A stretch of 64,000 nt of DNA, from the IMG/VR virus record IMGVR_UViG_3300028628_000004. One strand, written 5' to 3'. Under the pieces are notes generated by a model. The model was not told the origin of the DNA, did not search any database, and was given only the letters and a program-made list of their open reading frames with translations. Numbering within the stretch: position 1 is the stretch's first letter; every line of letters starts with the position of its first letter. Positions 54,532-63,970 of this stretch are shown here, one piece after another. The position numbers were made by a program, and so were the translations under genes. The stretch is from a virus (lineage: Duplodnaviria; Caudoviricetes).

Positions 54532-54906
54532 TGGTGGAGATGTGCGGTGCTGCCCCGCAGTCCAAAATCACTTTCATATTCCGTCTACAAGTTTAGAAGT
54601 TTAGACTTAAACTCCAAAGATGCTTCTTGTTGATCGTCCTGGCACGGGACTAGGATAATAACGCATATCCGCAACTCACAGTTGTCTTAATCTTGGGTAA
54701 CTGTCAGTTACATTGCCAAGAAGCAACCCCTATGTTACAGAGTTTCCAAGTCGAGATATCCTTGGGACTCTGGCAAGGAGCGATTAAGCTGCCATTGCGT
54801 ATTCAACTGAGTCATCAGTTATTTTTTTACATGTTTTTTAAGTGACCACATGTTCCACTACTTGCAAGAGATACTTCCACGATCCTGTCGAATCTGTGTC
54901 ATCCCC
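54532..54906 (-). ncRNA. ssrA: tmRNA, tag (A)DDSVEYAMAA
   Basis: GGGGATG...CATCTCCACCA with G3:U70, GATTCGAC, ATAACT then tag ORF 54816-54784. Confidence 0.93.
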
Positions 54907-54912
54907 ATAAAA

Positions 54913-54990
54913 TGGTGTGCATGAGAGGATTCGAACCTCCAACACTTACGCCCTCAACGTAATACCTCGTGCCAATTGGGTTACACGCAC
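54913..54990 (-). tRNA. tRNA-Leu(GAG), short variable loop
   Basis: TTACG-TTGAGGG-CGTAA, GTTCGAATC, CCA. Confidence 0.8.
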
Positions 54991-55820
54991 ATATTTTTTT
55001 CTAGCCAATAACCTCTAGGGAATTTTGGAATATCAATCCCTAGTTTTTTGCATCTTTTGCGTATTGCATTATCACTAACACCGAACATTTTAGCTACGCT
55101 GGTTAACGGCATTTCGTTTATATACTTCGTCAAATCACATGAAGAAACATCAAACTTTTTATTATTTTCACTAATTATAAATTCACCGCATTTTCTATTT
55201 TCATTGTAGCATTTTGCACAAACTCCTTTACTTTTTTTCGACACCACACACCCGCACATTTTACACTTTTTTTCGAAGCGTAACTTCTGGTCGTTTTCCT
55301 TTAATAAATTTTTTTGTTTAGTATTCTGAAGTTTTCCTTTATTACCCCATGTCAATGTTTGTGAATGACAGTTTGGGCATAGAAATCTAAGGTTGTTTAT
55401 TCTATTATCATTATGAATGCCGTTAATGTGGTCTACTTGCAATGTTATCTTTTCGCCCATCCACGTGTCGCCGTTATTGCATTTTTCGCATTTATATTCT
55501 CTTCCATTTTCCAATAGACGCTTACTAATCATATAACCACTTGCGGGGGTTGAATTTTCGCAGAAAAAATCTTCGTCTGATTTTCTTACTCTTATAGCCT
55601 GCATTTTTATTCTCATATCAGTCAAGGAGGTTTTCCCGCGTGACCAAGCAGACCCAGTAAAATGAGATATATCTATATTGAAGTATCTAATTAAACTCTT
55701 TATATGATTATGATTTCCACCACTATATGCCAAACCCAGATTTGCTAAAACATTTGATATTGAGGTTGATTTTTTCACAACTTCTTCTAGTATTTCCTTG
55801 GTGTACTTTCGATGTCTCAT
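54981..55820 (-). CDS. free-standing HNH homing endonuclease
   Basis: CEKC, LQVDHING...DNR..NLRFLCPNCHSQT, C-terminal HTH VSDNAIRKRC. Confidence 0.9.
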   Translation of the reverse strand: MRHRKYTKEILEEVVKKSTSISNVLANLGLAYSGGNHNHIKSLIRYFNIDISHFTGSAWSRGKTSLTDMRIKMQAIRVRKSDEDFFCENSTPASGYMISKRLLENGREYKCEKCNNGDTWMGEKITLQVDHINGIHNDNRINNLRFLCPNCHSQTLTWGNKGKLQNTKQKNLLKENDQKLRFEKKCKMCGCVVSKKSKGVCAKCYNENRKCGEFIISENNKKFDVSSCDLTKYINEMPLTSVAKMFGVSDNAIRKRCKKLGIDIPKFPRGYWLEKNMCV

Positions 55821-57468: not shown

Positions 57469-57542
57469 TGGCACATGGGGAGAGAATCGAACTCCCATCT
57501 TTGGGTTTGGAATCCAAGGTACTACCATTGTACGACCCATGT
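57469..57542 (-). tRNA. tRNA-Trp(CCA)
   Basis: loop TTCCAAA, G73 CCA. Confidence 0.85.
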
Positions 57543-57550
57543 ATAAAATC

Positions 57551-57940
57551 TTTGTTGACCCATCCGGTGTGCTGTTACGCTAAAACGGTGGTTTGCTTTA
57601 CTATCTATTATACACCCACAATCACACATAATCCACTCGTGTGGACTTTGACGAGCAATAGATTGCTCTGCGTATGAAAGAGAGGCGGATTTCTTACGAA
57701 ACCAATCTTACTCGCCTCACTCGGTGGGAACCCCATACTTGGAGTTGATGTGACAAGTTACTCATACGCTGGCTACAAGTGGTTCTCGGTCTTCCTTTTT
57801 ATCGGCTGTCTTTATAGCTTGCTCTAAGGCTTGCTTTCAAGACTCCTTGTAGTAGTCGTATGCTTGCTCATTTCTATACAGCGCCCGTACTCTTTAAATG
57901 ATGGCTGCTTCTAAGCCGACATTTCGGTTCGGTCAACAAA
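57551..57940 (-). ncRNA. large ncRNA containing a split 23S rRNA H43-H44 (L11-binding) mimic
   Basis: 10-bp terminal helix TTTGTTGACC/GGTCAACAAA; ATGTCGGCTTAGAAGCAGCCATCATTTAAAGAGT ... GCGTAACAGCACACCGG. Confidence 0.8.
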
Positions 57941-58013: not shown

Positions 58014-58112
58014 TGGTGCGGGCGACAGGATTTGAACCTGCGATTTCTTGCTCCCTGGCAGTTACTATTAGGTAACTAAAGCAAGCGGAATACCAGACTT
58101 TCCTACACCCAC
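58014..58112 (-). tRNA. tRNA-Pro(TGG) interrupted by 22-nt insert (58056-58077)
   Basis: CTTGC-TTT[AGTTACCTAATAGTAACTGCCA]GGGA-GCAAG. Confidence 0.75.
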
Positions 58113-58220: not shown

Positions 58221-58931
58221 TTATATTTCAATTCCAAGAATTTTACATCTTTTTCTTATTGCATTATCAGACACCCCGTATTTTACACCTATTTTAGTCA
58301 TAGGCATTTTGCTAACATCATCCATTAACTGCTCTTTACTAACTTCAAATTTACGGCGTTTCTTACAAGAACATTTTAGACATTTATTGTTTTTATTTTT
58401 TGTTGTTACACACCCACATTCGTCACAGTTATGTCTTTTTGCGTGATATTGTTTATTTTTACCAGAAAAAGTAGAAGTTTGAGAGTGGCAGTTTGGGCAT
58501 AAGAAACATAGATTTTCTATTCTGTTATCATTATGTATTCCATTCTTATGTTCTAATTGAAGAGTTATTATCTTACCCAACCATACTCCATTGTTCCCAC
58601 AGCAACTACACTCGTATTTTAGTAATCCTTCATTGACCAATCTTTTTTTAAGATAATGTCTAGCGTATGATGAATTCTGGGTTAATACCTGTGATAATGG
58701 TTTCTTCTTGGCGTTAAATTTTCTACCTTTATTGGAACCTACGCCGAGTGCTATATGTGAAATATCTACTTTTTCTTCGATGCATCTATTTTTAATTGTC
58801 TTGTAATTTCCTCCTTTATTTTCCATTCCGACATATTTTAGTATTTCGCTTATAGTGTTAGATGATGCTACTAATCTAGCGAATTCTTCTTTTGGTATTT
58901 TCCAAATTATGCTTCTCTTTTTTCTTGTCAT
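58221..58931 (-). CDS. free-standing HNH homing endonuclease, paralogue of 54981-55820
   Basis: LQLEHKNG...DNRIENLCFLCPNCHSQT, VSDNAIRKRC. Confidence 0.9.
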   Translation of the reverse strand: MTRKKRSIIWKIPKEEFARLVASSNTISEILKYVGMENKGGNYKTIKNRCIEEKVDISHIALGVGSNKGRKFNAKKKPLSQVLTQNSSYARHYLKKRLVNEGLLKYECSCCGNNGVWLGKIITLQLEHKNGIHNDNRIENLCFLCPNCHSQTSTFSGKNKQYHAKRHNCDECGCVTTKNKNNKCLKCSCKKRRKFEVSKEQLMDDVSKMPMTKIGVKYGVSDNAIRKRCKILGIEI

Positions 58932-59071: not shown

Positions 59072-59188
59072 TTGGGAGTGAGGGATTCGAACCCCCACAG
59101 AGAGATCCTGGCGACTGTTTATGGACTTGAACCACATTGTTTCCTATAACAATCAAAGTCTCTCGTCCTACCATTAGACGAACCCCCA
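59072..59188 (-). tRNA. tRNA-Gln(TTG) interrupted by 46-nt insert (59109-59154)
   Basis: AGAGA-CTTT[GATTGTT...AACAGTCGCCA]GGA-TCTCT; no encoded terminal CCA. Confidence 0.75.
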
Positions 59189-59827: not shown

Positions 59828-59898
59828 TGCAGGATAGAGGAATCGAACCTCTGACTCCGGCTTAACTGCCGGTGTGATAACCACTTCACCAATCCCGC
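59828..59898 (-). tRNA. tRNA-like gene with 6-nt anticodon loop, undetermined
   Basis: Full cloverleaf, CCGGC-AGTTAA-GCCGG, no CCA. Confidence 0.55.
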
Positions 59899-60330: not shown

Positions 60331-60447
60331 AAAAGACCACACCGTTTCTGCATTGTTAAGAGGCTGGTATGGTGCTACTGAACGACCACTCATGGTTGAG
60401 CATCTTAGAGAGGCTTGAGTGGGGCGGAGCCGTTTCATGCTCCTTAT

Positions 60448-63592: not shown

Positions 63593-63970
63593 TTACTTCA
63601 AAAGCGACAGCTTACCGAAAATAGCTTTGGACACTTCGTTGTCGATGGGTTCAAAAGCAGTTGCGGTTTCTGCGTTAGACATATCGGGTTCTATGAAGGT
63701 GGTGTATGATAACTCCATTCTGTCATAGAGTGCCTTTATGCTTGCAATTTCGTTATCCGTTGCGGAGAGAAGAATCATTGTCTTGTGGTTGTTCACCCAA
63801 TCAATGACTTTGGGCTTCTGTCCGTGTTGTGCCATAAACTCGGCAGCCGCGTGGCTACTCTGTACAGCACAATGAGTTAACGGAAGTATATCTCGTCTGA
63901 TGAGGATGAACATCTTAAGCATTTTGCTATATACCTCCGGTGCCACAGGCACACTCGGGTATGAGAGCAT
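63593..63970 (-). CDS. PTH2-like peptidyl-tRNA hydrolase
   Basis: MFILIRRD, AVQSSHA, W....KT.ILL, F.EPD....TA.A, L.LL; alternative start 63922 with GGAGGT SD. Confidence 0.75.
   Translation of the reverse strand: MLSYPSVPVAPEVYSKMLKMFILIRRDILPLTHCAVQSSHAAAEFMAQHGQKPKVIDWVNNHKTMILLSATDNEIASIKALYDRMELSYTTFIEPDMSNAETATAFEPIDNEVSKAIFGKLSLLK

Follow-up and report, generated by a model that had tools for sequence, protein, structure and literature searches.

The 64,000-nt stretch of DNA analyzed here (the window, always meant in its full length) comes from an uncultured jumbo phage (Duplodnaviria; Caudoviricetes; IMG/VR record IMGVR_UViG_3300028628_000004) and contains, within a tRNA gene array, a minus-strand gene that comparative analysis shows to specify a stable, highly structured noncoding RNA (ncRNA) of about 390 nt that belongs to a large family of phage RNAs. 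In the predicted fold, for which the same comparison provides the demonstration, the two ends of this RNA form a closing helix of their own and together restore the autonomous 58-nt GTPase-associated center (GAC) of 23S ribosomal RNA (rRNA), i.e., the top of H42, H43 and H44, as two halves that are separated by a structured insertion. We propose, with a probability of roughly 0.5, that the element imitates the factor-docking site away from the ribosome and binds the host protein uL11. At the same rough odds, a free-standing GAC imitation of this kind, joined in some lineages by a sarcin-ricin loop (SRL) and loaded with uL11, would allow the phage to reprogram or protect translation from outside the ribosome.

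The likeness to 23S rRNA covers both halves of the domain. With the insertion removed, the spliced 58-nt core of the window copy is identical at 50 of 58 positions to a genuine Paenibacillus-type 23S rRNA (L001; 36/40 in the 5′ half and 14/18 in the 3′ half), and at 47 of 58 positions to a second genuine 23S rRNA (L028). Together with the outer helix, the core folds into the expected three-way junction, the same as in the bacterial 23S GAC (E. coli 1051–1108, the uL11/thiostrepton domain). The resemblance to this domain on which a preliminary description of the locus had been built, namely that of a split GAC mimic, is thus real. The 5′ half takes in H43 completely, including its A1067 loop, together with the top of H42, the 1082–1086 junction, and G1087–U1090 of H44, and the sequence GCGUAACAGCACACC at 57580–57566 corresponds to the family 3′ half GCGUA-NN-AGCACAC, with A1101 pairing with U1090. 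A 27-nt block of H43 gives one match in the window, and none of 100 shuffles matches even when three mismatches are allowed. The insertion junction of the window copy reads GAGU/ACGG...CCGU-UUUA/GCG, the slashes marking the borders of the rRNA-like halves. The perfect 10-bp terminal helix, the 308-nt insertion and its ACGG/CCGT closure, all described earlier, were found in place (Table 1), and the outer closing helix can be extended to 16-nt arms with 88% complementarity. Furthermore, the 390-nt stretch folds with −116.9 kcal/mol, compared with −93.5 ± 5.3 kcal/mol for shuffles (z = −4.4). The view of a discrete structured ncRNA that is not rRNA is borne out.

Compared with the 23S GAC, the element stands alone, with a closing helix of its own, non-rRNA sequence in place of the continuation of H42, and it is phage-encoded beside tRNA genes. 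A bacterial large-subunit (LSU) rRNA model was run against the whole virus record, which is 101.6 kb long, has a completeness estimate of 44% and contains a single copy of the element. The sole match spans model positions 1098–1143 with 23 bits, in agreement with the earlier statement that no other rRNA flanks the element. Neither the flanking rRNA helices (the H41/H42 base and H45) nor the rest of the LSU were found in the record, and the flanks consist of the private helix and tRNAs. A genuine 23S gene or gene fragment is ruled out, since the LSU model finds nothing else that is rRNA-like. Genuine contiguous 23S sequence is present in L001 (Paenibacillus phage Pd_22F, MZ092003, about 83.9–84.0 kb) and in several 2–7-kb 'phage' records, and it probably represents host DNA or mislabelled fragments.

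The split architecture is that of a whole family. An IMG/VR scan with the H43 sequence returned 27 loci, one of which is real rRNA and 26 of which share the architecture: in every one of these, ...AAAGAGU is followed by unrelated sequence and then by ...UUU(G/A) GCGUA(A/G/U)NAGCACAC. Scanning with the 3′ signature yielded at least 120 matches in IMG/VR and at least 120 in a genome collection, and at least 146 distinct elements of one build could be extracted from IMG/VR and from contigs of metagenome-assembled genomes (MAGs). By our arithmetic, about 550 chance matches to the 3′ pattern are expected in 596 Gb. Real elements account for 43 of the 120 genome-collection matches listed, nearly all of them on MAG contigs, and the named isolate chromosomes among the listed matches are without the 5′ half. 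Part of the invariance of the 3′ half is imposed by the search pattern itself, but it holds equally for copies recovered only by way of the 5′ half, as GCGUA(A/G/U)NAGCACAC is present in all 16 distinct ones. The build is shared without exception by the 146 distinct elements, with the insertion exactly at the U1090/G1091 junction, a helix closing it and a UUU(G/A) linker, and all family copies have in common a self-closing helix of non-rRNA sequence outside 1051/1108. Every mimic carries AGCACAC (A1101), save that of phage pf16 with AGCGCAC, whereas the two real 23S copies examined have AGCUCAC, i.e., U at position 1101, which argues that the mimics are one lineage and do not derive from repeated captures of host rRNA.

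Family members occur in cultured phages as well. The full-sequence architecture was confirmed for Cronobacter phage GAP32, Pseudomonas phage pf16 and Aeromonas phage 4_4572, in all of which the element is unannotated; for Pectobacterium phage CBB, Serratia phage BF, several Erwinia phages, Xanthomonas phage XbC2 and Pseudomonas phages Milchi and Astolliot the assignment is by BLAST match only. Among the IMG/VR matches, the close relatives of the window copy amount to a single sequence (L268, identical to L269), in which 78% of the alignment columns are identical; its outer helix is conserved with one compensatory change, and the A1055·C1104 mismatch becomes an A-U pair. An IMG/VR scan with the 18-nt block of the insertion (Table 1) brought one extra match (L270), a chance match in unrelated sequence. 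The covariance model R1 assigns the window copy 40.4 bits (E = 9e-11) and genuine 23S rRNA 59 and 50 bits, and it splits members with long insertions; since genuine 23S scores as high or higher and long-insert members are split, R1 is unusable as a membership score.

Comparison of the members supports the view that selection maintains the GAC fold throughout this large phage family. In an alignment of 51 members, 90.7% of the cells are paired, compared with 68.7% in column shuffles, and the covariation score is 0.569, compared with 0.146 for the shuffled alignments (0/500 reach the observed value) and at most 0.18 with slid partners; compensatory changes are present at 20 of the 28 pairs. Core statistics were derived from 123 distinct cores. 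Pair 1058–1080 is realized by six pair types (99% canonical), 1057–1081 alternates between AU and CG, 1054–1105 between GC, AU and UA, and 1082–1086 between UA, CG and AU (97% canonical). Invariant are U1060–A1088, C1072, A1084 and A1085. In crystal structures of the domain, 1082–1086 and 1060–1088 form contacts of the tertiary structure or of the junction, and the residues that presumably make the tertiary fold of the GAC are retained in the element, i.e., U1060–A1088, the 1082–1086 pair, C1072 with C1092–G1099, and G1093·A1098. Position 1061 is free (U, A, G or C), and genuine GACs likewise show no conservation there; according to the same source, the domain folds autonomously and must adopt its tertiary fold for L11 to bind (PMC6239185). 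The helix outside 1051/1108, on the other hand, covaries freely across the family and its sequence is not rRNA-like. Lower H42 holds the uL10 site, and since the stem beyond 1051/1108 is not rRNA-like, this part of H42 is absent from the element, so that partners among the stalk proteins besides uL11 are unlikely. The earlier suggestion that the RNA recruits uL11 and stalk proteins is thereby narrowed to uL11.

The insertion noted in the preliminary description is real, but this phage is not alone in having it: all family members carry such a domain, which varies in size and always lies at 1090/1091, where the bacterial 23S GAC is continuous. Its length ranges from 26 to 399 nt, with medians of 134 nt in the viral set and 141 nt in the genome set; it always follows G1087-A-G-U1090 and ends in the UUUR linker. 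The helix that closes it is 93.5% paired with compensatory changes at 4/4 pairs; in L269 it reads CCGC/GCGG, and an internal long-range helix keeps two compensatory changes in that relative. The shortest insertions, of 26–27 nt, are bare hairpins, and there is no core common to the whole family. Two matches were obtained in an IMG/VR scan for an insertion-free pattern (GAGU directly before GCGUA-NN-AGCACAC), which could reveal only copies fitting that pattern; both are chance matches without H43. A coding role was considered for the insertion and rejected, as the longest open reading frame (ORF) has 42 codons and the gaps in the alignment with L269 are not multiples of three, so that no reading frame is conserved. 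A few members (L268/L269, L134, L078 and L261) have a second expansion site at about 1078/1079 in H43, which carries an extra hairpin of 20–30 nt. Judging by secondary structure only, from which the exit directions are derived, we infer that the closing helix and the two expansions would exit the domain close to the junction, at some distance from the loops of 1067 and 1095. The insertion is a variable accessory domain that would leave the GAC at its base, as the closing helix does.

Two modules recur in the insertions. The first, a CC-N-(GNRA/UAAC)-N-GG-UAAGG hairpin, is present in 29 distinct insertions (e.g., L006, L023, L136, pf16 and Aeromonas 4_4572), where it is preceded by CAC and placed just ahead of the insertion closing strand, and its N-N pair covaries. 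The second is an AGUAC-GNRA-GGAA hairpin with covarying stems that represents the consensus of the SRL (H95 in 23S rRNA). It was found in at least eight distinct long-insert relatives from IMG/VR and MAGs (L066, L074, L093, L157 and L274–L278), with inserts mostly of 310–330 nt; its tetraloop is mostly GAGA, and GGGA or GAAA in two. By our estimate, about 0.04 chance occurrences of this hairpin are expected in 22 kb of insertion sequence. In the insertion of the window copy, flanks that tentatively resemble those of L074 (AGUAUG...AGUGAGG) surround only a short stub. Interpretations of the recurrent modules as K-turns or tetraloop receptors were made by eye only, and they were dropped as too weakly supported to claim.

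The array that holds the element comprises 19 co-oriented tRNA genes and a tmRNA gene, and no promoter- or terminator-like site was found between the flanking tRNAs and the element. Over 143 loci of the family, 845 of 845 tRNA genes lie on the strand of the element, and in 73 of these loci a tRNA is located within 300 nt of it. An all-against-all BLAST comparison of 1,902 ORFs from the 143 loci yielded no recurrent neighbor protein, the largest cluster covering nine loci. Partner genes were surveyed in 50 carrier phage records, 23 of which are at least 90% complete. A uL11 gene is present in 0/50, a bL12-like domain in 3–4, and an EF-Tu-type GTPase in a single one, which is a provirus record. 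Since the carriers are without uL11 and have no recurrent neighbor protein, any protein partner is most likely supplied by the host.

Taken together, the exact architecture, the single build of the family, the covariation, the co-orientation with tRNA genes, the carriers without uL11 and the SRL-bearing relatives lead us to favor an imitation of the uL11 site that acts off the ribosome. From its context, the element would be transcribed together with the phage tRNA array and probably be released from the transcript by tRNA processing. The folded head, as suggested by the fold and by the established biochemistry of the domain, would then bind host uL11. The RNA would sit off the ribosome, imitate the docking site of uL11 and of translation factors, and compete with ribosomes for whatever recognizes it; uL11 is the first candidate partner, and GAC-directed toxins and translational GTPases are others. 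Limiting uL11 is reported to blunt RelA activation and RF1-dependent termination. The consequence that we would place first is a depletion of uL11 from ribosomes by which both of these processes are blunted; protection from proteins or drugs aimed at the GAC, such as Tre23, would come second, and capture of translational GTPases third.

Several points weigh against this proposal. At position 1067, 86% of the 123 cores have A and 12% have G, and positions 1068, 1070, 1096 and 1097 vary. We take the loop base 1067 and its neighbors to be contacts of factors and of thiostrepton, and they are looser here than expected for rRNA. Since A1067 is not invariant, contacts with thiostrepton or factors are unlikely to be selected for strictly, and, from the sequence variation, factor docking may not be what is selected. 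There is no SRL hairpin in the insertion of the window copy. The expansion at 1078/1079 presumably lies near the place where the C-domain of uL11 binds. Moreover, imitation of the uL11 site leaves the obligatory insertion at 1090/1091 without explanation, and an RNA that soaks up an abundant ribosomal protein or a catalytic toxin would have to be present in high copy number.

The RNA might instead be a decoy or inhibitor of toxins or antibiotics that recognize the GAC (and, in the relatives with an SRL, the SRL), e.g., Tre23-type ADP-ribosyltransferases, SRL-cutting toxins or thiopeptides, and in this way protect the ribosomes that the phage needs. We regard this as unlikely, although it heads the alternatives. 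The GAC and the SRL are both known toxin targets, and they are joined in one RNA in the SRL-bearing relatives. However, no defense system is known to target the GAC, a stoichiometric decoy absorbs catalytic toxins poorly, and the neighbor BLAST over 143 loci showed no linked toxin, antitoxin or defense gene. Tre23 ADP-ribosylates H44 at 1095–1098 and blocks the GTPase activity of EF-G (PMC8661411), but 1096 and 1097, within this target window, are among the positions that vary freely. The element lies amid tRNA genes, and phage tRNA genes have been shown elsewhere to counter RNA-targeting defenses (PMC11555353, PMC11464382).

Somewhat more doubtful is direct binding of translational GTPases or of RelA and the A/R-tRNA complex, by which the RNA, acting as a detached ribosome part, would titrate or mis-activate EF-G, EF-Tu, IF2, RF3 or RelA away from ribosomes. 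A 1997 paper by Munishkin and Wool, cited in PMC3496166, is reported to concern binding of EF-G to SRL and thiostrepton-domain oligonucleotides. Isolated SRL RNA binds EF-G and IF2 (PMC3496166), but with a micromolar Kd, and affinities of this order would lose to ribosomes. Likewise, in RelA complexes A1067 is in contact with the A/R tRNA, and so is the SRL (PMC5829649), but neither A1067, which is G in the fraction of cores given above, nor the SRL tetraloop, with its GGGA and GAAA variants, is strictly conserved. SRL hairpins are present in long-insert relatives but missing from most members, the window copy included, and the one matching GTPase gene in the carrier survey is that of the provirus record.

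The GAC head could also be no more than a stably folding scaffold, or a handle by which the RNA is processed or stabilized, with the function residing in the variable, lineage-specific insertion, a possibility to which we give slightly less credence again. In its favor, the insertion is obligatory, with no insertion-free copy fitting the scanned pattern, and it is structured and locally conserved, as exemplified by the 18-nt block and by the module of the 29 insertions. However, insertions go down to a plain hairpin and have no family-wide core, it is the GAC part that is the invariant, covarying element, and a mere platform needs no retention of the rRNA positions that we recall as tertiary contacts.

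A further alternative, and a very improbable one, is that a copied stretch of 23S rRNA serves as a mini-exon that harbors an intron of group I-like or protein-spliced type, removal of which would yield an uninterrupted 58-nt GAC RNA, or that the whole element is the footprint of a mobile rRNA intron. The insertion does occupy one exact position, in most copies it is preceded by U and ends in G, HNH endonuclease-like ORFs are present in the same tRNA array, and other tRNA genes of this phage have inserts. Against these stand the lack of a group I (RF00028) or group II match even at E ≤ 10, insertions of 26–55 nt that are too small for a ribozyme core, and the absence of a shared core. The last base of the insertion is A in the window copy and differs between the near-identical L004 (G) and L012 (A), and since it varies it is not a fixed omega-G. 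In addition, both insertion-free pattern matches are chance matches, and there is no ORF inside the insertion. A group I, mobile or other ribozyme-type intron was rejected on the grounds of size range, missing common core, missing Rfam intron match, variable last base and the lack of an insertion-free allele that fits the scanned pattern. Finally, although some phage-labelled records hold real rRNA (L001, L028 and short 'phage' records), an assembly chimera or a decaying, functionless captured host rRNA, the former of which had been named earlier as a possible refutation, is refuted by the recurrence of the same split across unrelated samples (146 distinct sequences) and in finished genomes of cultured phages, by compensatory changes throughout, by A1101, which is missing from the two real 23S copies examined, and by the lack of rRNA flanks in the window copy.

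No family in Rfam 15 matches the element, either at the gathering threshold or at E ≤ 10, and no published description of this phage RNA family was found in a full-text literature search, in keeping with the earlier remark that no named family was known for it. Among known objects, the rRNA domain itself comes nearest to the element, and among known concepts it is the imitation of rRNA by leaders of ribosomal-protein operons, of which the L10 leader (RF00557) presumably imitates the L10(L12)4 site that adjoins the GAC. Like these leaders, the element is an extra-ribosomal RNA that copies a protein site of rRNA and could capture a free ribosomal protein. Unlike them, it is not a cis-acting 5′ untranslated region with loose likeness to rRNA, but a separate gene in a tRNA array that is nearly identical to rRNA, followed by a tRNA in place of a ribosomal-protein gene, devoid of an Rfam match, and encoded by carriers without uL11. 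For GOLLD/ROOL-type RNAs, a 2024 preprint reportedly describes RNA-only complexes by cryo-EM. GOLLD and ROOL are likewise large structured ncRNAs that are often located in phages or prophages and adjacent to tRNA genes, with which they are possibly co-transcribed, but they are not described as rRNA-like (PMC5737381). They show no sequence or model similarity to the element, whereas the present family is defined by its copy of a ribosomal domain.

If the proposed imitation of the uL11 site holds, the family would constitute a new class of viral RNA, one based on mimicry of a ribosomal functional center, and phages would intervene in translation with an imitated part of the ribosome itself, beyond tRNAs, tmRNA and ribosomal proteins. 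To our knowledge, no virus is known to do so. The element would also offer a natural, compact and self-folding display of the GAC, in some lineages with the SRL, for structural and binding work, and would call for a new enquiry into the roles of uL11, RelA, release factors and ribosome-directed toxins during infection. Since the carriers include cultured phages of easily handled hosts, such as the Pseudomonas putida phage pf16, the question is directly testable.

Table 1 Positions of the element, its parts and flanking tRNA genes in the window, and of the copies in three cultured phages
Feature	Sequence	Position	Strand	Remarks
Whole GAC-mimic RNA gene	Window	57940-57551	minus	About 390 nt
Outer helix, 5′ strand UUUGUUGACC	Window	57931..57940	minus	Not rRNA-like; self-closing
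5′ half of mimic (23S 1051-1090)	Window	57889..57928	minus	40 nt
Insertion between U1090 and G1091	Window	57581..57888	minus	308 nt, structured
Insertion closing helix, ACGG / CCGU	Window	57888-57885 / 57588-57585	minus	
18-nt block CCGAUAAAAAGGAAGACC in insertion	Window	57788..57805	minus	Unchanged in sole close relative
Linker UUUA	Window	57584-57581	minus	Follows insertion closing helix
3′ half of mimic (23S 1091-1108)	Window	57563..57580	minus	Rest of H44 with A1095 loop, 3′ strand of H42
Outer helix, 3′ strand GGUCAACAAA	Window	57551..57560	minus	Perfect 10-bp pairing with UUUGUUGACC
tRNA-Trp(CCA)	Window	57469..57542	minus	Begins 8 nt downstream of element, same strand
tRNA-Thr(AGU)	Window	58014..58112	minus	99 nt; ends 73 nt upstream of element, same strand
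Copy in Cronobacter phage GAP32 (L271)	JN882285	About 289.5-289.76 kb		Between GAP32_395 and GAP32_396; annotated empty
Copy in Pseudomonas phage pf16 (L272)	KU873925			Between tRNA-Asn and tRNA-Pro; annotated empty
Copy in Aeromonas phage 4_4572 (L273)	MK813943			Complete copy in gap annotated empty

Further features were observed around the element, all of those in the window being on the minus strand. Suppressor tRNA genes are located within about 7 kb of the element in 14 of 97 tRNA-bearing loci (e.g., L007, L038, L041 and L100, the last being GAP32), with the anticodon CUA in 13 and UCA in one, a count made without a control set. The tRNA gene at 59828–59898 has an undetermined two-base anticodon, and two tRNA genes are over-long, i.e., that for tRNA-Thr(AGU) (Table 1) and a 117-nt gene at 59072–59188, called by Rfam and not by ARAGORN. 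The tmRNA gene inside the array is full-length (54532–54906, 108.7 bits), and a match to the abiF RNA motif (RF03085) is located between tRNA genes at 60385–60422, with 41.6 bits compared with a gathering score of 37. Two HNH-endonuclease-like ORFs and a PTH2 peptidyl-tRNA hydrolase lie among the tRNA genes (58221–58931, 54981–55820 and 63593–63970); one of the two HNH-like ORFs scores above the Pfam HNH cut-off and the other has a sub-threshold HNH_3 match.

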